The notes below the pieces were generated by a model that saw nothing but the letters and a program-made list of their open reading frames with translations, made no database searches and was not told the origin of the DNA. A DNA stretch of 64,000 nt from Candidatus Rokuibacteriota bacterium (GTDB lineage Bacteria > Methylomirabilota > Methylomirabilia > Rokubacteriales > CSP1-6): the NCBI GenBank assembly GCA_016193045.1, contig JACPSW010000059.1, positions 49,383-113,382 of the forward strand. Direction: 5' to 3'. Shown here in pieces: positions 4,632-13,883 of the stretch; the stretch's first letter is position 1, and every line of letters begins with the position of its first letter. Made by a program: the position numbers and the translations under genes.

Positions 4632-5327
4632 CTACTTCGGCTGGTAGACCCAGATCTTCCCGGCAGCCGCCAGCCCCAGCACGATCGTCTTGCCGTCGCT
4701 CGCCGTCGTGATCGTCCCGGCCCACGGCGCGACGTCCTGGATCTTGAGCCGCATCCCCGGCCTCACCCCGTTCTGCCACAGGTGCTCGAGGAGCTTCCGG
4801 TCCGCCTCCGCCTCCTCGGTGATGCGCTCGACCACGACCGTCGTGCCTTCCTTGGCCTGGTCGAGCGGGAAGGGATGGGATTGCGACGGGCTCGCCATGC
4901 CCGGGATCGGGTTGCCGTGGGGACAGGTGGTCGGCATCCCGAGGATGGCCGCCAGGCGGTCCTCGACCTTGGGGGAGAGGGCGTGCTCGAGCCGGTGGGC
5001 CTCTTCGTGCGCCTCGGTCCAGTCGAGCCCGAGGATGTCCGTCAGCCACCGCTCGAGGAGCCGGTGGCGCCGGGCCATGACCTCGGCCATGGCCCTGCCT
5101 TTCTTGGTAAGCGTGATCTCCTTGCCCGCGGCCAGCCGGATGTAGCCCGCGCGGGCCATGCGGTGGAGGGCCTCGGTCACCGCGGGGGGGGAGACCTTCA
5201 TGTGCTTGGCGAGCCGCGCTCCGATCACCGGCCGGCCGCTCCCGGCGAGGTCGTAGATCGCCGCCAGATAGTCCTGGACTGAGGCGGTCGTCTCCGCGGA
5301 GGGGGCTTTCCGCGCCTCGTGCGCCAT
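4632..5327 (-). CDS. DtxR/IdeR/MntR-family metal-dependent transcriptional regulator with a C-terminal FeoA/SH3-like domain.
   Basis: Contains the VQDYLAAIYDL...GARLAKHMKVSPPAVTEALHRMARAGYI helix-turn-helix, followed by metal-binding and dimerisation regions and a C-terminal SH3-like domain. The start was chosen at the MAHEARK methionine (5327), which is consistent with the ORF frame. It is divergent from the Fe(III) ABC transporter. Confidence 0.85.
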   Translation of the reverse strand: MAHEARKAPSAETTASVQDYLAAIYDLAGSGRPVIGARLAKHMKVSPPAVTEALHRMARAGYIRLAAGKEITLTKKGRAMAEVMARRHRLLERWLTDILGLDWTEAHEEAHRLEHALSPKVEDRLAAILGMPTTCPHGNPIPGMASPSQSHPFPLDQAKEGTTVVVERITEEAEADRKLLEHLWQNGVRPGMRLKIQDVAPWAGTITTASDGKTIVLGLAAAGKIWVYQPK

Positions 5328-5381
5328 CGGTGCCCCATTATGAGGCCTCCCTCGGTCCGGCGCAAACAGGGCAGGCAAAAA

Positions 5382-5422
5382 TTAGGTTGACAGGATGTTT
5401 TGTATTAGGTATGGTTAATGCC
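5382..5422 (+). promoter_or_regulatory. Candidate DtxR-family operator (two TTAGGT half-sites) overlapping a sigma70-like promoter (TTGACA-17 nt-TATGGT) for the ABC transporter operon.
   Basis: The sequence ttaggTTGACAggatgttttgtattaggTATGGTtaatgcc lies 16-56 nt upstream of the ATG at 5438. TTAGGT matches the conserved half-site of IdeR/DtxR boxes. The -35 and -10 elements are spaced 17 nt apart. Confidence 0.35.
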
Positions 5423-5437
5423 ACCAGGAGGCTGGAA

Positions 5438-6457
5438 ATGAAACGCGCCGCGATTCTGCTGCTCGGCCTGGGGCTGGGACTGAGCGCCGCCCTTCCCGCC
5501 CGGGCCTCCGCGTCCGAGGTGGTCGTGTACTCGGCCCGCAAGGAAGATCTGCTCCGCCCCGTCCTGGATGCCTTCCAGAAGGACACGGGGATCAAGGTCA
5601 CGCTGCTGACCGGCAAGGCCGGAGACTTGGCCCGGCGGATCGAAGTCGAGAAGAGTGACCCCAGGGGCGACGTGTTCCTGGGCACCACCGCCGGCATCGC
5701 GGAGCTCCTCCGGCGAAAGGGGCTCCTGTCCCCGTACTTTTCCCCGGCCGCCCAGGAAGTGCCCGAGGAGTTCAAAGCCCCTGATGGAAGCTGGGTCGGC
5801 GTCACGGGCCGGGTGCGGGTCCTGATCTACAACAAGAACCGCGTGTCCGACGCCGAGCTCCCACGCTCGTTCTTCGACTTGACCGACCCGAAGTGGAAGG
5901 GGAAGGTGGCGGTGGCCTCCATGGGTGAGCGCACGACCGTGAGCTGGCTGGCTGCCTCGATGGCGCTGAGGGGCGAGGAGGCCACCCGTCAATACGTCAG
6001 GGGCCTCCGGGACAACGGCCTCAAGGTCCTCAACAACAACACCGAGGTGCGCAAGGCCGTGGCGCGGGGGGAGTACGCCATCGGCATCACGAACCACTAC
6101 TACTACCTGCTCCAGCTCCACGACGACCCCGCAAGCCCCGTGGGGATTCTCTACCCAGACCAGGGAGCCGACGGGATCGGCGCGCCGATGTTCTCCATCA
6201 CGGCCTCGATCCTCAACGGGGCAAAGCATCCGGAGGCGGCTCGCGCCCTGATCGACTACCTGCTCGGCCCAAGAGGGAACCGCCTCCTGGTGCAGGGAGA
6301 GTTCGAAATCCCCCTCATCCCGGGGATCCCCGTGCCGGGGGAGGACAAGGGCGTCAAGGGCCTCGGGCAGTTCAAGAAGGCGCGGGTGACCCAGGTCCAG
6401 CTTGCGGACCTGGAGACGAGGGTCGAGAAGCTCTTCGGGCCCTTCCTCATCCCGTAG
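5438..6457 (+). CDS. ABC transporter substrate-binding protein, Fe(III)/FbpA-type (extracellular solute-binding family 1).
   Basis: Signal peptide MKRAAILLLGLGLGLSAALPARASA. It resembles AfuA/FbpA-like iron-binding proteins. An AGGAGG ribosome-binding site lies 7 nt upstream of the ATG at 5438. Confidence 0.8.
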   Translation: MKRAAILLLGLGLGLSAALPARASASEVVVYSARKEDLLRPVLDAFQKDTGIKVTLLTGKAGDLARRIEVEKSDPRGDVFLGTTAGIAELLRRKGLLSPYFSPAAQEVPEEFKAPDGSWVGVTGRVRVLIYNKNRVSDAELPRSFFDLTDPKWKGKVAVASMGERTTVSWLAASMALRGEEATRQYVRGLRDNGLKVLNNNTEVRKAVARGEYAIGITNHYYYLLQLHDDPASPVGILYPDQGADGIGAPMFSITASILNGAKHPEAARALIDYLLGPRGNRLLVQGEFEIPLIPGIPVPGEDKGVKGLGQFKKARVTQVQLADLETRVEKLFGPFLIP

Positions 6458-6469
6458 GGCCGTGCCGGA

Positions 6470-8050
6470 GTGACGGTCCGCCGCCGCTGGTCCCCGACCG
6501 GGCTCGCTCTCGCCGTCCCGACAGCTCTCTTCGTCCTCGGTCCCCTCGGTTTTCTCGTCTGGATGGGCCTGGCCCAGGAGCGAGCCGACTTCCTCGAGCG
6601 GGCGCAGGACCTGGATCTGCCGATGGTGGTGGGGCAGGTCGCCCTCCTGGCCACGCTGACGACGGTGTGGGCGGGCGCGCTGGGGGTGCCCCTCGCATGG
6701 CTTACGGTGCGCACCGACCTTCCCGCCCGGCGGCTCCTTCACTGGCTGGCTCCGCTGCCGCTGGCCATTCCGCCGTACATCGGCGCCCTGGTCTACCAGA
6801 TCCTGCTGGCCCCGGGAGGAGTGCTTCCGAATTTCCTCGGCGTGACCAGCCTCCCGCTGAATCTCTACGGCGTCGGCGGCGCCGCGTGGATCCTGGGTCT
6901 CTTCACCTACCCGTACCTGTACCTGCTCGTGAGCGGCGCGCTGGAGCGGACGAACCCCGCACTCGAGGAAGCCGCCCGCGGGGCGGGGCTGTCGCCGCGG
7001 CGCGTGCTCACCCGCGTCACCCTCCCGTTGCTCCGCCCGTCCCTGCTGGCCGGCGGGCTCGTCGTCTTCCTCTACAGCTGGGCCGACTTCGGCGTCGTCT
7101 CCCTGCTCCGCGTGCGAACGCTCACCACGATCATCTACGACTACATCCAGGGCACGGCGGACTGGGCGCTCCCCTCCGCTCTCTCGATCCTGCTGACGGC
7201 CATCACGATCCTCGTCCTGCTCCTCCAGCTGCGGGTCCTGGGACGGGCCGGCTACACGCAGATCGTGGGTGCGGTAAAGCCCGCGCCGCTCGTTTCCCTC
7301 GGGGCGTGGCGCTGGCCGGCGTTCGCGTACGTCGGGGGGATGGTCACGCTGACGCTCCTGCTCCCGCTGGGCGTCCTGGGCTATCAGGCGTCCCGGCTGT
7401 CCGCCTCCGACATGGGCGCCTTTGCCCTGACGCAGTGGCCCTATCTCGTGAACAGCCTCTGGACGGCGGTCGCGGGGGCGAGCCTCGCCCTCCTGATCGC
7501 CCTCGGCGTCGCCCGGTCCGAGGGACGCGGCCGGGCGTGGCGCGTGTCCGGGCTCCTGCAGGTCGGCTACGCCATCCCCGGGACGGTGCTCGGGCTCGGC
7601 CTGGCGGGGTTCCTTCACGCGACGCTCCCCTGGATCTATGCGACCCCGTTGGCGCTGATCGTCGCCTATGTCGTCCTCTACATCACGCCGGCCTTCCAGG
7701 CCGTCAAGGCGGCGCTCGCCCAGCTGCACCCGTCGATCGAGGAGGCTGCCCGGAGCCTCGGCCGAGGGCCGCTCGCCGCCTTCCACGCGGTGACCCTGCC
7801 CCTCATCAAGCCGGGCCTCGTTGCCGGCTGGCTCCTGGTGTTCGTCCTCTCCATGCGCGAGCTGGCGGCCACGCTGATCGTGCGCCCGCCGGGCTTCGAT
7901 ACCCTGCCCGTGCGGATCTGGACTCACGCCATGGACGTGGGGCCGGAGCCGCGGGCGGCGGCGCTGGCCCTGGCCCTCGTCCTCACCATCGCGCTCCCCT
8001 GGTTCGCGCTGCTCTCCCGCCGGCTCAGGGGAATCTCCCCGAGCATGTGA
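6470..8050 (+). CDS. ABC transporter permease, FbpB-type (duplicated transmembrane domain).
   Basis: 526 aa. Two tandem six-helix permease domains with EAA-like loops. It follows the binding-protein gene in the operon. Confidence 0.85.
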   Translation: MTVRRRWSPTGLALAVPTALFVLGPLGFLVWMGLAQERADFLERAQDLDLPMVVGQVALLATLTTVWAGALGVPLAWLTVRTDLPARRLLHWLAPLPLAIPPYIGALVYQILLAPGGVLPNFLGVTSLPLNLYGVGGAAWILGLFTYPYLYLLVSGALERTNPALEEAARGAGLSPRRVLTRVTLPLLRPSLLAGGLVVFLYSWADFGVVSLLRVRTLTTIIYDYIQGTADWALPSALSILLTAITILVLLLQLRVLGRAGYTQIVGAVKPAPLVSLGAWRWPAFAYVGGMVTLTLLLPLGVLGYQASRLSASDMGAFALTQWPYLVNSLWTAVAGASLALLIALGVARSEGRGRAWRVSGLLQVGYAIPGTVLGLGLAGFLHATLPWIYATPLALIVAYVVLYITPAFQAVKAALAQLHPSIEEAARSLGRGPLAAFHAVTLPLIKPGLVAGWLLVFVLSMRELAATLIVRPPGFDTLPVRIWTHAMDVGPEPRAAALALALVLTIALPWFALLSRRLRGISPSM

Positions 8051-8054
8051 CGCT

Positions 8055-9092
8055 GTGGAGCTGCTGACCCTCGACCGCGTCACCAAGCGCTACGACCCGG
8101 ACCAGCCGCCGGCCGTGGACGCCCTCACGCTGACGGTCGAGCAGGGGGAGATCCTCGCCCTGCTGGGGCCCTCGGGGTGCGGCAAGACCACCACCCTTCG
8201 TCTGATCGCGGGGTTCGAGGTGCCGGACTCGGGGCGTGTGGTGATCCGCGGAGCGACCATGGCGGGACCGGAGGGCTGGATCCCTCCCGAGGCGCGCGGA
8301 GTCGGGATCATCTTCCAGGATTACGCGCTGTTCCCTCACCTGACCGTCGCCGAGAATGTCGGCTTCGGCCTGCACCACTTCGGCCGGAGCGCCCGGCAGG
8401 AGCGCACCCGGCAGATCCTGGCGCTGGTGGGGCTCGAGAGCTTCGCCCTCCGCTACCCTCACGAACTGTCCGGCGGCCAGCAGCAGCGCGTCGCCCTCGC
8501 CCGGGCCCTGGCCCCCGCCCCGGCCCTCATTCTGCTCGATGAACCCTTCTCGAACCTCGACGCCGACCTCCGCGCCCAGATGCGCGAAGAGGTGGAGCGG
8601 ATCCTGCGCAACACGGGGACGACCGGCATCTTCGTGACTCACGACCAGGAAGAGGCCTTCACCCTCGCGGATCGGGTCGGCGTGTTGAACGAGGGCCGGC
8701 TGGAGCAACTGGACGCGCCCGAAACGATCTACCACCACCCCGCCACGCTGTTCGTCGCCGAGTTCGTGGGGGCCGCCGATTTCCTCCCCGGCCTGGTGAC
8801 CCCCTACGGGATCGTGACGGAGCTCGGTGTCTTCGCCAACACCGAGGCGTGGAAGATCGGCGAAAAGGTGAAAGTCATGCTCCGCCCCGACGACGTCACC
8901 TTCGTCCCCAGCTCCGTTGGAGACGGCATGATCATCCGCCGCGACTTCCGCGGCCCGGAGACCCTCTACTGCATCCGGCTCCCCTCGGGCCAGCGGGTGC
9001 ATTCCTCCCAGGCATCGTCCTCCCTGTACCCCAACGGGACCCGAGTCCGCGCCGAGGCCCACCTCATCCACGTGGTCACCTTTCCAGTGTAG
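8055..9092 (+). CDS. ABC transporter ATP-binding protein, FbpC-type with a TOBE-like C-terminus.
   Basis: Walker A (GPSGCGKTT), ABC signature ([15 protein letters not shown]), Walker B ([11 protein letters not shown]) and H-loop are all present. A C-terminal regulatory domain follows. Confidence 0.9.
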
Positions 9093-9148: not shown

Positions 9149-10255
9149 ATGCGAGGCTTTGAGACCACGCCCCCGGATCTGCGGGCCCTCCTGCCGCAGC
9201 GCATCAGCCAGCTGGGCCTCAAGCTCGAAGGCTCGCCGGTGGAGCGCTTCGTCAAGAAGCTCTACCGGGAGGTCGAGCGGAAGGGCCTGAAGCACTTCCG
9301 CCCTCCCTGCTACCTCACCGACGAGTGGGGATGCCCCTCGGGAGAGCCGATCATCGGCATTCCCTTCTACCTCGCCGACGCCAAGCTGGCCCGCCTGGAG
9401 GACGAGATCGACGACGTCGAAGACGAGCGCGAGATCCGCATGTACCTCCGCCACGAGGCCGGACACGCTTTCAACTACGCCTTCAAGCTCTACGAGACCG
9501 CGGAGTGGCGCGAGCTCTTCGGGCCGTTCAACCGGCCGTATCGCGAGCGGTACCGCCCCGTTCCTTTCGACCGGAACTTCGTGCGCCACATCGAGGGCTG
9601 GTACGCCCAGAAGCATCCCGACGAGGACTTCGCCGAGACCTTCGCCGTCTGGCTGACCCCCCGCTCGCGCTGGCGCGCGCGGTACCGCGGCTGGCCGGCC
9701 ATGCGGAAGCTCCGCTACGTGGACCGCGCGGCGCACGCCCTGCGCGACTCCGAGCCGCCGGTCCGCCTGGCCTCCACCGACATCACGGTGGAAGAGATGA
9801 ACATGACCGTGGAGGAGTTCTTCCGCGCCAACCAGGGGGAGATCGCGCCGGTGGAGGTCGCGCTCGAGAACGACCTGCCGGACTTCTTCGTCCGCAAGGG
9901 GCGCCGCACCCGGGGGATCCGGCCAGCCTGGGAGATGGTCCACGAGCACCGCATCCCCCTGATCAACAAGATCGAGTACTGGACGGGGGTGCACCGCGGC
10001 GTCGTGCGGGCGCTGGTGGACAGCATCGCCGACGCCGCGGAGCGGCTCCAGCTCTACGTCGAGACCAAGACCGAGCGCGCCGCGCTCGTCGAGCTCACGA
10101 CTTACGCGACGACCCTCAGCATGAACTATCTGACCCGGGGGAGCTTCGTCCCGAGAGTCCGTCAGCGCATTCCGGAGGCGGCGAAACGGGCCGCCGCCCG
10201 AACGCCCAAGGAGACCGATGGCCAGACTCAGGATCGCGATCGCCCACAGCCCTGA
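9149..10255 (+). CDS. Putative zinc metallopeptidase of unknown specificity, carrying an HExxH motif.
   Basis: 368 aa. A HEAGHAFNY zincin motif is present, with a downstream EDFAETFA segment that is a possible third ligand region. It resembles the peptidase families that co-occur with ATP-grasp ligases. It overlaps the following ATP-grasp gene by 38 nt. Confidence 0.55.
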   Translation: MRGFETTPPDLRALLPQRISQLGLKLEGSPVERFVKKLYREVERKGLKHFRPPCYLTDEWGCPSGEPIIGIPFYLADAKLARLEDEIDDVEDEREIRMYLRHEAGHAFNYAFKLYETAEWRELFGPFNRPYRERYRPVPFDRNFVRHIEGWYAQKHPDEDFAETFAVWLTPRSRWRARYRGWPAMRKLRYVDRAAHALRDSEPPVRLASTDITVEEMNMTVEEFFRANQGEIAPVEVALENDLPDFFVRKGRRTRGIRPAWEMVHEHRIPLINKIEYWTGVHRGVVRALVDSIADAAERLQLYVETKTERAALVELTTYATTLSMNYLTRGSFVPRVRQRIPEAAKRAAARTPKETDGQTQDRDRPQP

Positions 10256-11222
10256 CGGCGACCCCCGGGTCCAGCGACGCCGCGCGGGCCTGCGGAAGAC
10301 CGACGCCCAGGAGGTCGCCGAGGTGCTGCGGCGGGCCGGCCACAAGACGTTCTTCGTCGTCGTGGACGGGGCGCCGAAGTGTCTGAAGCGGCTGGCCAGC
10401 GTGGACGCCGACCTCGTCTTCAACCTGGTCGAGGGCTTCGGTGACGACAACACGAAGGAGCCCCACGTCGCCGCCTATTACGACCTCCTCGGCCTCAGGT
10501 ATACGGGCTCGGGGATGCGCGGCCTCTCGCTCGCCATGGACAAAGCGCTGGCCAAGAAGGTCCTCACCTTTCACCGCGTCCGGACGCCGAAGTTCGCGAC
10601 GGTCTTCCGCGGCCGCCTGGACTGGGCGCACGATATCGAGTTCCCGGTGATCGTCAAGCCCGTCCGCGAGGACGGCTCCATCGGCATCGGCTTCAGCGCG
10701 CTGGCCGGCAGCATCAAGGAGCTGATGGAGCGCATCGACGAGCTCCACGCGGACTTCAACCACCCCGTGCTGATCGAGCAGTACATCGACGGGCGCGAGA
10801 TCTACGTCGGGGTGATCGGCAACGCGCGGGCGGAGGCGTTTCCCCCGGTGGAGCTCGACCTCTCCCACCTGCCCAAGGGCAAGCCCCGGATCGCCAGCGT
10901 GGAGGTGAAGTGGGAGGAGGGCACACGCGCCTACCGCAGCGCCAAGCTGCGGATTCCCGATGACCTGCCGCGCGAGGTCCTGGAGGCGATCCAGCACGCC
11001 GCGCTTACGAGCTTCCAGGCCCTGCAGCTCCGCGACTACGCCCGCTTCGACTTCCGAATCACCCCGGACGGGAAGGTCTTCCTGATCGAGGCGAACCCGA
11101 ACCCCTACCTCTATTCAGGGGCCGAGTTCATCCGGGGCGCCCGCGCCTCCGGCCGGACCCACCCGGAGACCATTCTCGACATTCTGGAGCTGGCCCAGGA
11201 GCGCTACCGCTCCCGCGGCTAG
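10218..11222 (+). CDS. ATP-grasp ligase of the D-alanine-D-alanine ligase family.
   Basis: 334 aa. The fold matches Ddl-type ATP-grasp enzymes (VIVKPVREDGSIGI, EIYVGVIG, FLIEANPNP). It is translationally coupled to the upstream metallopeptidase gene. Confidence 0.8.
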   Translation: MARLRIAIAHSPDGDPRVQRRRAGLRKTDAQEVAEVLRRAGHKTFFVVVDGAPKCLKRLASVDADLVFNLVEGFGDDNTKEPHVAAYYDLLGLRYTGSGMRGLSLAMDKALAKKVLTFHRVRTPKFATVFRGRLDWAHDIEFPVIVKPVREDGSIGIGFSALAGSIKELMERIDELHADFNHPVLIEQYIDGREIYVGVIGNARAEAFPPVELDLSHLPKGKPRIASVEVKWEEGTRAYRSAKLRIPDDLPREVLEAIQHAALTSFQALQLRDYARFDFRITPDGKVFLIEANPNPYLYSGAEFIRGARASGRTHPETILDILELAQERYRSRG

Positions 11223-11304: not shown

Positions 11305-11577
11305 TCAGTGTGAGAAGCCACCACTCGGCTGCGCGAGCTTCTCTCCCTTTTCCCGGAGATACACGAGGCGCGCCCGACCTCGTTCCGAGAGCCGATAGAC
11401 ATGCTTCCCTCGCTTGCCGCGGCGCAGATCAACGACGCGACTGGCCAGGTTTTGGCGCGCGAGACGGAGCAGACCCATTGCCGCCGCTTGATACCGGACG
11501 CCGAATGCACGAGAGACCTCGTCCGAATCCGCCTGGCCCACTTTCGCGAGATATTCGAGGAGCTCGCGCTTCGTCAT
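11305..11577 (-). CDS. Small hypothetical protein, possibly a winged-helix DNA-binding protein.
   Basis: 90 aa, basic. A helix-turn-helix-like segment (SDEVSRAFGVRYQAAAMGLLRLARQNL) is followed by a predicted beta-hairpin wing (GKHVYRLSERGRARL). There is no firm family assignment. It sits at the edge of the AT-rich region. Confidence 0.35.
   Translation of the reverse strand: MTKRELLEYLAKVGQADSDEVSRAFGVRYQAAAMGLLRLARQNLASRVVDLRRGKRGKHVYRLSERGRARLVYLREKGEKLAQPSGGFSH
11312..11353 (+). terminator. Candidate rho-independent terminator for the + strand peptidase/ATP-grasp operon.
   Basis: A hairpin with a 7-bp perfect stem and 18-nt loop (GAGAAGC...GCTTCTC) is followed by TCCCTTTTCC. It lies 90 nt downstream of the ATP-grasp stop and overlaps the 3' end of the convergent small ORF. 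Confidence 0.25.
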
Positions 11578-12053
11578 ATCTCAGGATGCGGGGGATAGAC
11601 CCGCCCAGATCCCGCCTGAGTCATATCAGATTTTCGGGTTGGCGCGCCCGTGAGCAACGAGGCCCCCGAGCCAGCGGGGGCACGACGTTAGGCGGGAAAA
11701 ATGTACTCGCCGACTTGACGCACTTACACACCTTGACGCTCTTGGAGCCTCCAGATCATCGCTAGGTGTTATGATTACTGTGCCCCGTTGGCTCACATTT
11801 TGCTAAGTGTTTCTCCGAATGCTTTTTCGGGGTTTTCACGAAGAGGAACCGAGGGATCGAATCTAACGACAGACAGATAGAAACTACAGAAAGATAAGAG
11901 CTGCGGAGAACCCCTCCCGAGAAGGGCAAACCCGCCGTGAGGCGGGGGCGCAAAGCCACGGATCAGGCGACAGACCTGACAGCCGGGCTGCCGAAGGAAG
12001 GGTATCTCAACCCCCCCGGGACCGTGGTGGTCCTCCGCGCAAGGGGGACCACG

Positions 12054-13883
12054 ATGGTTGGGGGAAGGGGTTCGAGCGCTCACCGCCTCCTCGTCCTTCT
12101 ACTCGGGGGATTACTCGTCGGGGCGTCGCTGGTTCCCCCCGCCCTGGCGGCGCCACTGCCGGGCTTCCCGCTCCAGTCCTCGCAGGCCTCGCCCGTCACC
12201 GGCGCGGTCACGATCTCTGCCCCCTCCATCCTGCCCGAACCGGGCCTGCTGGGCGTCCAGTTCAAGGTCGACGGTTACGTGCTCGACGCGCTCGACGCGA
12301 CGGCGCCCTTCCAGGTCGTGTGGAGTGCCGCCAGTGCAACCAACGGCGACCATACCATCACGGCGGAGGTCCGGTTGACTTCGGGAATCGTCATCGAGTC
12401 GGCCCCGCTCAGTCTGACGGTCGACAACCCGTCGACCTTCAACCGCACGCTTCACGTCGATGCCACTGCCGGCAACGACGGCAACAATGGCCTGACACCC
12501 GACACGGCGTGGCGGACCCTCGACCGGGCCAACAACGCGGTGGTCGCGGGCGACACCGTGCTGCTATGGGGCACCTTCACTGGTCAGTACATTCGTCCCG
12601 CGATCTCAGGAACCCCCGCCACGCCGATCACCTTCAGGAGCGCTCCCGGACAGACCGCCGTGCTCGACGGTGGTCTCTCGGGCGTCGCGGCGCGGCTCAC
12701 CGCCCGCAGCTACATCGTGGTGGAGCAGCTCCGCATCCAGAACGTTCCCGGCCAGGCCGTCGTGCTGGAAGCCGGCGCCCATCACAACGTCCTGCGTGAC
12801 TTGCTTATCACAGATATTATCAACGGCACGGCGTGGGTCAGCGCCATCCGGATCACTCAGTCCAGCGACAACCTCATCGAGCGCAACACGATCACCAACA
12901 TCGGCAACGCGACGGCCGACCAGGGCGACAGCATGTGGATCGACAACGGATCGAGCCGCAACCGCATCCTCAGCAACACGATGCGGAACGGCAGCCATAG
13001 CCTCATCCTGATCGGCGGCGATTCGCCCGGTGACGCCGAGGTGGGCGACAACGTGGTGGCGGGGAACACGCTCTCGAACCCATGGGGGTCCCATATTGGT
13101 CTCTTGCATATGGCCCGACGAACGCTTATCGAGGGGAACCGCTTGTCCGACGCGAACGTGAACGGGACGAACCGCACGTCCGCCACCATTCAGGTGGTGT
13201 CACGCGATCACATCATCCGCTACAACGAGTTTGTCAACAACGGGGCAATCAATGCGGCTCCGGGTGCGGGCGGAACTCCGGGCATCTCGCTCTTGGCGTA
13301 CACCTATACGGCCGGGGTCGAGCAGGACGCGATCGGCAATCGGATATACCATAACGTCTTCTACGGCAACGGGACCTATGGGCTCTGGATGTCGGAGAAG
13401 GGCGGCCGCCGTGTCACCAACAACGTGATCGAGAACAACATCTTCTTCCGGAATGCCGGGTTCCCCCTCGGCAGCCAGACCTACACGATCGGGATTGAGC
13501 ACTACAGCAACCCGACGGCTTGGCCGGTCGGCAGCCTGAATGGCAACCGCATCCAGAACAACATCCTCCTGCGGCAGCCGGGGTCGGCGGGCGAGCCGAT
13601 GGTGCTGCGGATCCGCAACGCCAGCCAGGGCGGCAACCTGACCTACACGCTCTCGGCCTTCCAGCAGACCTACACGGAAGCGGCCAACAATCTGGAGGCC
13701 GACCCCCTGTTCACCGACGCGGTCAGTGGTGTGTTCACACTGCGAGCCGGTAGCCCCGCGGTCGATGCCGGCCTGATCATTCCCGGGATCGCCTACCTCG
13801 GGGCAGCGCCGGATCTGGGAGCCTACGAGTACGGGGCAGGCGGGCCGACACCCGCGGCCCCTTCAGGGTTAAGCCTCCGGTAA
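12054..13883 (+). CDS. Secreted right-handed parallel beta-helix protein (pectate-lyase fold) with an N-terminal Ig-like domain; paralog 1 of 3.
   Basis: Start chosen at the ATG at 12054 (MVGGRGSSAHRLLVLLLGGLLVGASLVPPALAA, a signal peptide; AAGGGGGA ribosome-binding site). An Ig-like domain is followed by the NRTLHVDATAGNDGNNGLTPDTAWRTLDRAN motif and repeated NxxxN/GxN beta-helix coils. It is paralogous to 55783..57633 and 57646..60018. Confidence 0.8.
   Translation: MVGGRGSSAHRLLVLLLGGLLVGASLVPPALAAPLPGFPLQSSQASPVTGAVTISAPSILPEPGLLGVQFKVDGYVLDALDATAPFQVVWSAASATNGDHTITAEVRLTSGIVIESAPLSLTVDNPSTFNRTLHVDATAGNDGNNGLTPDTAWRTLDRANNAVVAGDTVLLWGTFTGQYIRPAISGTPATPITFRSAPGQTAVLDGGLSGVAARLTARSYIVVEQLRIQNVPGQAVVLEAGAHHNVLRDLLITDIINGTAWVSAIRITQSSDNLIERNTITNIGNATADQGDSMWIDNGSSRNRILSNTMRNGSHSLILIGGDSPGDAEVGDNVVAGNTLSNPWGSHIGLLHMARRTLIEGNRLSDANVNGTNRTSATIQVVSRDHIIRYNEFVNNGAINAAPGAGGTPGISLLAYTYTAGVEQDAIGNRIYHNVFYGNGTYGLWMSEKGGRRVTNNVIENNIFFRNAGFPLGSQTYTIGIEHYSNPTAWPVGSLNGNRIQNNILLRQPGSAGEPMVLRIRNASQGGNLTYTLSAFQQTYTEAANNLEADPLFTDAVSGVFTLRAGSPAVDAGLIIPGIAYLGAAPDLGAYEYGAGGPTPAAPSGLSLR

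Follow-up and report, generated by a model that had tools for sequence, protein, structure and literature searches.

A conserved pair of a Ddl-family ATP-grasp ligase and a Peptidase_Mx-like zincin in Candidatus Rokubacteria and other soil bacteria

An adenosine triphosphate (ATP)-dependent amino-acid ligase is matched by a dedicated trimming or releasing peptidase in RimK-RimB, cyanophycin synthetase-cyanophycinase and LysX-LysK, while VanX, a small D,D-dipeptidase, acts on the dipeptide of the VanA pathway. In trypanothione synthetase-amidase, an ATP-grasp synthetase is coupled to the hydrolase of its own product (PMC2427367). Here we describe two overlapping genes from a 64,000-nucleotide (nt) stretch of contig JACPSW010000059.1 of a Candidatus Rokubacteria genome, referred to below in its full length as the window. 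The genes encode a zinc peptidase and an ATP-grasp ligase of the D-alanine--D-alanine ligase (Ddl) family, which probably constitute a make-and-break module of two genes, cytoplasmic and self-contained, that serves one amide-linked product.

9149..10255, + strand: peptidase gene, open reading frame (ORF) A, 368 amino acids (aa), ATG start; putative cytoplasmic zincin, divergent member of Peptidase_Mx (PF15887)
10218..11222, + strand: ligase gene, ORF B, 334 aa, ATG start; Ddl-family ATP-grasp enzyme of a distinct "FNLxE / KW / E(A/V)NPNP" clade

The three amino-acid ligase systems named above differ from this pair in both components. Their ligases are of the RimK type or combine ATP-grasp with Mur-type ligases, their peptidases are retropepsin, S51 and M20 enzymes, and their substrates are the S6 tail, an Asp-Arg polymer and the LysW carrier, whereas no carrier or target gene is linked to the window pair. 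Exact-sequence look-up identified ORF A as GenBank entry MBI3029522.1 ("putative zinc-binding metallopeptidase") and ORF B as MBI3029523.1 ("D-alanine--D-alanine ligase"), both from a Candidatus Rokubacteria metagenome-assembled genome.

When the peptidase alignment was run against one genome for each of 185,579 species, at least 593 carriers were detected, and the genome-locus counts given here rest on the best 80 loci of these. The 80 loci span six or more phyla-level groups: Methylomirabilota, Limnocylindria (Chloroflexota), Eisenbacteria, Acidobacteriota (Thermoanaerobaculia, Terriglobia, and Vicinamibacterales), Gemmatimonadales, and delta-proteobacteria/Myxococcales. The ligase gene was found directly downstream of the peptidase gene and on the same strand in 77/77 informative loci, the other three being uninformative since the contig ends within 300 bp of the peptidase. 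In the reciprocal search, where a diverse ligase alignment was run against metagenome contigs, the peptidase gene was directly upstream in 57 of the 62 loci with enough upstream sequence. Four distant peptidase homologues, at 30-33% identity, are also followed directly by a Ddl-like gene, with a 4-nt overlap in three cases. The adjacency is far beyond chance, and the pairing to which a sequence-only reading of this DNA had attached a functional meaning is conserved rather than sporadic. Moreover, pairwise distances of the peptidase and the ligase across 72 genomes are strongly correlated (r = 0.889, a value reached in 0/999 Mantel permutations), and the mean divergence of the two proteins is nearly equal (0.356 vs 0.353); the distance correlation shows that the pair is inherited as a unit.

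No third gene accompanies the pair. Clustering of ORFs in the 80 loci yielded no further conserved family, the next one occurring in 8/80, and the sampled flanking genes were functionally unrelated (GGDEF, FAD halogenase-like, chalcone-isomerase-like, OsmC, and PilZ). Genes for transporters, maturases, VanH-type dehydrogenases, racemases, VanRS or other two-component systems, Mur enzymes, and carrier or target proteins are not conserved near the pair, and no lysine-2,3-aminomutase homologue was found in the window or in the 80 genome loci (L001-L080). Neither protein matched the PADLOC defence-system models, a promoter and terminator scan around the pair was uninformative, and the Rfam search revealed no riboswitch or other family upstream of it, the sole match being the cyclic di-GMP (c-di-GMP) riboswitch of the next gene. 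Finally, no small ORF within 700 bp on either side is conserved beyond close relatives in about 80 loci. The earlier observation that no precursor or substrate gene is evident nearby therefore extends from the window to the compared loci. These results bear on the possibility of a graspetide-like cluster for a ribosomally synthesised and post-translationally modified peptide, in which the ATP-grasp enzyme would macrocyclise a ribosomal precursor and the zincin would remove its leader. Combinations of ATP-grasp enzymes with zincin peptidases are known in graspetide loci (PMC8939145), but the lack of a conserved small ORF, transporter or other maturase in the surveyed loci and the Ddl-family nature of the ligase make a cluster of this kind highly improbable here.

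Two further arrangements link the same activities. First, a natural fusion (P0338, 568-572 aa), known from a cluster of four sequences that lie on several contigs in JGI, ENA, Logan, and NCBI data, consists of the catalytic domain of the peptidase (approximately residues 1-228) and a complete ligase, and lacks the helical domain of the peptidase. In uniting ligase and hydrolase domains in one chain of 568 aa, it may follow the logic of the glutathionylspermidine/trypanothione synthetase-amidases (GspS/TryS); however, the latter use a Cys (CHAP-type) amidase and another ATP-grasp family, whereas in our case the hydrolase is a zinc enzyme, the two proteins are usually separate, and the domains are not homologous to those of GspS/TryS. 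Second, the ligase gene comes first in three metagenome loci and is followed by the gene of a different Peptidase_Mx protein with N-terminal double zinc ribbons, the two genes overlapping by 4-14 nt in two of the three loci (L147 and L166).

L166:3992-4993: gene of the zinc-ribbon Peptidase_Mx subfamily, downstream of the ligase gene
L147:1287-2222: gene of the same subfamily, downstream of the ligase gene
L169:925-1968: gene of the same subfamily, downstream of the ligase gene

Ligase and zincin thus remain associated whichever gene comes first, with either of two peptidase subfamilies, and as a fusion.

The ligase belongs to the Ddl family and not to the RimK/GshB group, as had been read from the sequence. 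Pfam reported Dala_Dala_lig_C (93.4 bits) and, at E <= 0.01, no RimK or GSH-synthetase family, and all top NCBIfam and PDB matches were Ddl or Van ligases, with E-values for PDB Ddl/VanA entries of 1e-21 for the single sequence and 3e-37 for the profile. The scores are far below the curated thresholds: 130 bits for the top NCBIfam Ddl model vs a cutoff of 243 (NF002378), 45-94 bits vs 310-1015 for the equivalog models, and 40-89 bits vs 495-775 for the Van models, among which the D-Ala-D-Lac ligase models gave 53-89 bits vs 550-775. For a residue comparison, 73 family members were aligned to Escherichia coli DdlB (sequence verified as identical to PDB 1iov/2dln).

10245..10307, + strand: variable loop after strand beta-1, residues 10-30, in place of GGxSxExEVS (DdlB alignment)
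10419..10433, + strand: FNLVE motif, residues 68-72 (alignments)
10908..10913, + strand: omega-loop K231-W232, equivalent to DdlB K215-Y216; K in 73/73, second position F in 48, W in 24, L in 1
11043..11102, + strand: catalytic/Mg block R276, D278, E291, N293 (DdlB R255, D257, E270, N272), kept in 71-73 of 73

Equivalents of DdlB K97, K144, E180, E187, K215, R255, D257, E270, and N272 are kept in 71-73 of the 73 ligases; since these are the ATP, Mg and transition-state residues, which the window enzyme has in common with DdlA/DdlB and the VanA-type D-Ala-D-Lac/Ser ligases of the same ATP-grasp subfamily, the ligase looks active. The residues that define D-Ala binding are not kept. At the D-Ala1 site, the DdlB GGxSxExEVS loop with Glu15 is replaced by a variable insert, and the other two members of the Glu15-Ser150-Tyr216 triad are substituted (S150 by Gly in 71/73, Y216 by Phe or Trp in 72/73). 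At the D-Ala2 site (TSPGxxxxSL), Gly276 gives way to Trp or Tyr in 71/73, Ser281 to Ala or Gln in 66/73, and Leu282 to Glu in 71/73. NPNPY follows the catalytic block where Ddl has TSPG, and the equivalent of DdlB Y210 is Ala. In many Acidobacteriota ligases the loop after beta-1 is enlarged, with an acidic and Pro-rich part (WEEEPxEPEP) and then a polybasic run such as RKRKGQKKRKKK; it is seen within the N-terminal 60 or so residues of the ligases of L009-L053 (e.g., L025:9051-10097), and the window version is short. E72 of FNLVE is invariant in alignment A3 and conserved across all ligases displayed, while in the family motif FNL[VT]E the position opposite DdlB His63 is taken by Val/Thr or by the neighbouring Glu, according to the placement of one gap. 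The family profile aligns with solved Ddl structures only from about residue 85 onward, which fits a remodelled N-terminal substrate-binding domain.

Because the D-Ala-specific residues are replaced and the scores lie far under the curated thresholds, the ligase appears by sequence to be neither a housekeeping Ddl nor VanA, in agreement with what the sequence-only reading needed for its functional proposal. The opposite explanation, a housekeeping D-Ala-D-Ala ligase beside an unrelated peptidase, has on its side the NCBI name of MBI3029523.1 and the Pfam Dala_Dala_lig_C match. However, strict linkage with the peptidase across phyla, fusion with it in some genomes, and the lack of mur/fts context add to the residue and threshold tests, by which this explanation seems effectively refuted; we assign it next to no probability. 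The 64 kb of the window contain no second Ddl-like gene, and the neighbours of the pair are an iron ATP-binding cassette (ABC) transporter and a beta-helix protein. The name "D-alanine--D-alanine ligase" on MBI3029523.1 is most likely a misannotation. Many homologues bear it at JGI as well, and for the ligase clade as a whole it is very probably incorrect.

The sole Pfam family reported for the peptidase is PF15887 Peptidase_Mx, with 28.7 bits vs a cutoff of 27 and a match that spans only profile positions 81-164 of 236, around the HExxH core, so the membership is marginal and the protein a divergent member; precomputed PF15887 matches are present on its homologues. No NCBIfam model matches it, and no sequence relative was detected in PDB by the single sequence or the family profile. 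The family itself is large: in an exhaustive search of 1.84 billion cluster representatives, 1,832 clusters passed E <= 0.001, of which 454 also passed E <= 1e-30. In alignment A1, which comprises 32 full-length sequences with identity down to 29%, R101, H102, E103, H106, H156, P157, D160, E163, and F165 are invariant, defining the motifs LRHExGH and HPDEDFAETF. In the AlphaFold2 model, which is confident (predicted local distance difference test score, pLDDT, 90.3; predicted template-modelling score 0.81), an alpha/beta catalytic domain at the N-terminus (about 1-230) is followed by a helical domain towards the C-terminus (about 240-335) and then by a disordered tail.

9452..9466, + strand: HEAGH zinc-binding/catalytic motif, residues 102-106, preceded by invariant R101 (alignment)
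9614..9643, + strand: HPDEDFAETF motif, residues 156-165; contains E163, predicted to be the third ligand of the zinc, with H156 7 residues ahead
9866..10153, + strand: C-terminal helical domain, about residues 240-335 (AlphaFold2 helices 260-330), missing from the natural fusion
10154..10252, + strand: C-terminal tail, lineage-specific and of low confidence (pLDDT 51-73)

The model has a zincin fold, and its core resembles the gluzincins of anthrax lethal factor (LF), Pro-Pro endopeptidases (PPEP) and MtfA. About 120-150 residues superpose on LF and PPEP (M34), MtfA (M90) and the Bacteroides Peptidase_Mx protein BACCAC_01431 (PDB 4l7a) at an identity of 13-16%, while the C-terminal helical domain and a conserved N-terminal segment are unique to the family of the window peptidase. 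Foldseek matches against PDB were weak, 4l7a being the top one (E 0.17). The role of E163 is assigned by analogy, as we take the site to correspond to HExxH plus the EFFAE-type motif of LF, PPEP, and MtfA, and the assignment is backed by the fold match of the model. By this model the peptidase is a predicted LF/PPEP/MtfA-type gluzincin that lacks close relatives of known function and is not VanX-like, in line with its earlier description as a gluzincin-like HEAGH protein; given the invariance of R101, HExxH, H156, D160, and E163 it looks active. No signal peptide is obvious on reading the sequence, no predictor having been run.

The logic of a ligase acting with a metallopeptidase matches VanA and VanX, and the closest solved relatives of the ligase are Ddl and VanA, so a cell-wall module has to be considered, in which the ligase would make an alternative D-Ala-D-X depsipeptide or dipeptide and the peptidase would destroy D-Ala-D-Ala in intrinsic glycopeptide resistance or peptidoglycan remodelling. 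In both systems a Ddl-family ligase gene lies beside a zinc hydrolase gene, but VanX has another fold, whereas the partner here is an LF/PPEP/MtfA-like gluzincin (330-370 aa in the family, 368 aa in the window) of PF15887 with an endopeptidase-like cleft. The N-terminal substrate domain of the window ligase barely aligns with Ddl/VanA, its D-Ala1 loop is absent and the Ser150 and Tyr216 equivalents are replaced, and it scores well under all Van cutoffs; there is no cell-wall context, with no VanH, VanR, VanS, racemase or mur gene conserved nearby, and the family is paired with a zincin. We regard a VanA/VanX-like role as very unlikely.

We favour the make-and-break module, in which the ligase would use ATP and Mg2+ to activate a carboxylate as an acyl-phosphate and join an amine to it, forming an amide or peptide bond; this mechanism is proposed because it is that of the family and the catalytic residues are retained. 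The peptidase, with Zn held by H102, H106, and E163 and with E103 as the general base, would hydrolyse the bond made by the ligase or trim the product, and the two activities would jointly control how much of one amide-linked product is present or how long it is. D-Ala-D-Ala is not the substrate, nor is the substrate encoded beside the pair; since no partner gene is linked, it would have to be a common metabolite, a short peptide or poly-amino-acid made without the ribosome, or a housekeeping protein that is modified at its terminus or on a side chain. The operon-like close spacing or overlap of the genes, together with occasional fusion, indicates that the two proteins probably act in fixed stoichiometry as a physical complex. 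The natural fusion and the second ligase/Peptidase_Mx arrangement strengthen the earlier proposal that the ligase builds and the peptidase trims. A shared target bond for the two enzymes, and the direction of the flux, we infer.

The same evidence of functional coupling, that is, pairing in both directions and fusion, applies to serial salvage or remodelling, in which the peptidase would free an amino acid, a peptide or a new terminus and the ligase would re-ligate it elsewhere, the two enzymes handling different bonds in series. The peptidase gene comes first in the main family and LF/PPEP-like folds are typically endopeptidases, as such a series would have it. The order is reversed in the zinc-ribbon Peptidase_Mx variant, however, so gene order carries little information. 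No donor or acceptor gene is conserved nearby, and the documented ATP-grasp-hydrolase fusions are synthetase/amidases for the same bond (PMC2427367). Serial salvage is thus an unlikely explanation of the pair.

Several points weigh against the make-and-break module or limit its details. The pairing fits a peptidase that undoes the work of the ligase and a peptidase that feeds the ligase equally and cannot separate the two, and simple vertical co-inheritance would also yield the mirror-tree correlation. The two hints at substrate size disagree, because Ddl-family enzymes use small molecules and LF/PPEP-like peptidases are mostly endopeptidases. The association is not universal: a 40%-identical peptidase homologue (P0289, locus L091) has no Ddl-like gene within 5 kb, and a retropepsin-like aspartyl protease gene lies upstream of it and overlaps its start (L091:4621-6059); relatives of the catalytic domain that are shorter and have no ligase gene beside them occur on 22 IMG/VR viral contigs; and ligase paralogues adjoin aminomutase or ADP-ribosylglycohydrolase genes, without a peptidase. 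As to the ligase pocket, the AlphaFold2 model, built from a shallow alignment of 69-86% identity, had a pLDDT of 51, was not used, and allowed no pocket inspection. The alignment near DdlB His63 is uncertain by one residue, E72 lying at or beside it; an early alignment had put the invariant Glu exactly at His63, which was softened as the second and HMMER alignments shifted it by one residue.

Three of the phage-contig proteins were looked at individually (L098:4536-6239, L100:4815-6299, and L109:4515-5693). They are 392-567 aa long and have a Peptidase_Mx-like catalytic domain, to which two of these proteins add a Sod_Fe_C-like domain by fusion. The L109 gene follows a portal gene, and the L098 gene lies between HNH/AP2 and DNA methylase genes.

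The ligase paralogues form in part a sister clade, which in the neighbour-joining tree branches outside all peptidase-linked ligases and is found beside lysine-2,3-aminomutase-like radical S-adenosylmethionine genes.

L136:1563-3909: sister-clade ligase beside a lysine-2,3-aminomutase-like gene
L183:69-3778: the same arrangement, with a GNAT acetyltransferase gene and a second, more Ddl-like ATP-grasp gene
L195:15-2174: sister-clade ligase beside a lysine-2,3-aminomutase-like gene

The gene content of these loci suggests a beta-amino-acid peptide pathway. In another locus (L155:852-3538) a ligase homologue overlaps a gene for a dual-specificity phosphatase fused to an ADP-ribosylglycohydrolase. 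The sister clade and the other ligase relatives all share FNLxE, KW, and E(A/V)NPNP, and all lack the Ddl GGxSxE loop. Because Glu is conserved in nearly all members at two pocket-equivalent positions and the sister clade is linked to aminomutases, a cationic partner such as lysine or beta-lysine can be proposed for the make-and-break module, speculatively. A bolder reading of the pair, to which we give a rather low probability, is a reversible ATP-driven cycle of amino-acid tagging on a housekeeping protein, with the Ddl-family enzyme as the writer and the LF-like zincin as the "eraser". It would be a bacterial counterpart of tubulin tyrosination/glutamylation or of RimK-S6 modification and would occur widely among soil phyla, Acidobacteriota and Methylomirabilota included. 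A macromolecular target is compatible with the absence of a linked substrate gene, the endopeptidase-like fold, the remodelled N-terminus of the ligase, and the polybasic insert of many members.

At the locus itself, the two overlapping ORFs reported earlier were verified in their coordinates, their + strand and the 38 nt they share.

10218..10255, + strand: stretch shared by both frames, 38 nt; the same overlap occurs in L001, L085, and L086 only
10208..10213, + strand: AAGGAG Shine-Dalgarno of the ligase gene, inside the last part of the peptidase coding region, with 4 nt between it and the ATG of the ligase (read from the sequence)

Translational coupling, which had been proposed from the overlap, holds as tight operonic linkage with a Shine-Dalgarno in place, but not as a general 38-nt overlap. 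The median gap between the two genes elsewhere is 37 nt, with 4-nt ATGA overlaps at several loci; therefore the close linkage is general and the long overlap is not. The latter is confined to the window lineage because its peptidase has a C-terminal tail of about 30 aa that the others lack: the tail is missing in 30 of the 31 other A1 sequences, and P0263 has a shorter extension.

The genes on either side of the pair are as follows.

4632..5378, - strand: DtxR/IdeR-type iron-dependent repressor with a FeoA domain, divergent from the three-gene ABC importer
5330..6457: solute-binding protein of the ABC importer
6470..8050: permease of the ABC importer
8055..9092: ATPase of the ABC importer
11305-11577, - strand: 90-aa ORF convergent with the ligase gene, without a Pfam match, resembling a small winged-helix DNA-binding protein
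11916-11996, + strand: c-di-GMP-I-GGC riboswitch aptamer (RF03167), 70.5 bits vs a gathering score of 59, E 1e-14
11937..13883: ORF of 648 aa, a secreted-looking beta-helix/Big_7/NosD-like protein

The importer stops 57 nt before the peptidase gene and no terminator is predicted in between, so in the window lineage alone the pair may be co-transcribed with the iron ABC transporter. The transporter was considered as a functional partner (siderophore-like chemistry) and rejected, as genomes outside this lineage do not keep it with the pair; in the absence of a third conserved gene, both it and the DtxR-type regulator are lineage-specific neighbours. The 90-aa ORF is likewise not kept beside the pair in the other genomes compared. 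The RF03167 aptamer lies just upstream of the 648-aa beta-helix ORF, or overlaps its called start, and the riboswitch belongs to this ORF and not to the ligase-peptidase pair. In a subset of Acidobacteriaceae loci (L021, L025, L040, L052, and others) there is a conserved element about 20-110 nt upstream of the peptidase start, with a promoter-like TGCCAA-N17-TATAGA and an inverted repeat (aggcgt...acgcct) before it, suggesting that in these loci the pair is transcribed from a promoter of its own.

No experimental or computational description of this pair was found in the searchable literature, which left out the amidoligase survey of Iyer et al. (2009). The logic of the module is known; this pair, in which a Ddl-clade ligase that has lost the D-Ala site is combined with an LF-like zincin of Peptidase_Mx, represents a so far uncharacterised variant. 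As only two genes are involved, both enzymes look active, and cultured Acidobacteriaceae may carry the module, it is directly testable. If the proposal is true, a whole clade of proteins annotated as "D-alanine--D-alanine ligase" in soil phyla is misnamed and belongs to an unstudied system that makes and breaks amide bonds in at least about 590 species-level genomes. Once the product is identified, one branch of Peptidase_Mx, an uncharacterised family, would have a function, and a new metabolite or protein modification would be known from Acidobacteriota, Rokubacteria, Gemmatimonadota, and Eisenbacteria, soil groups that are dominant yet poorly understood.

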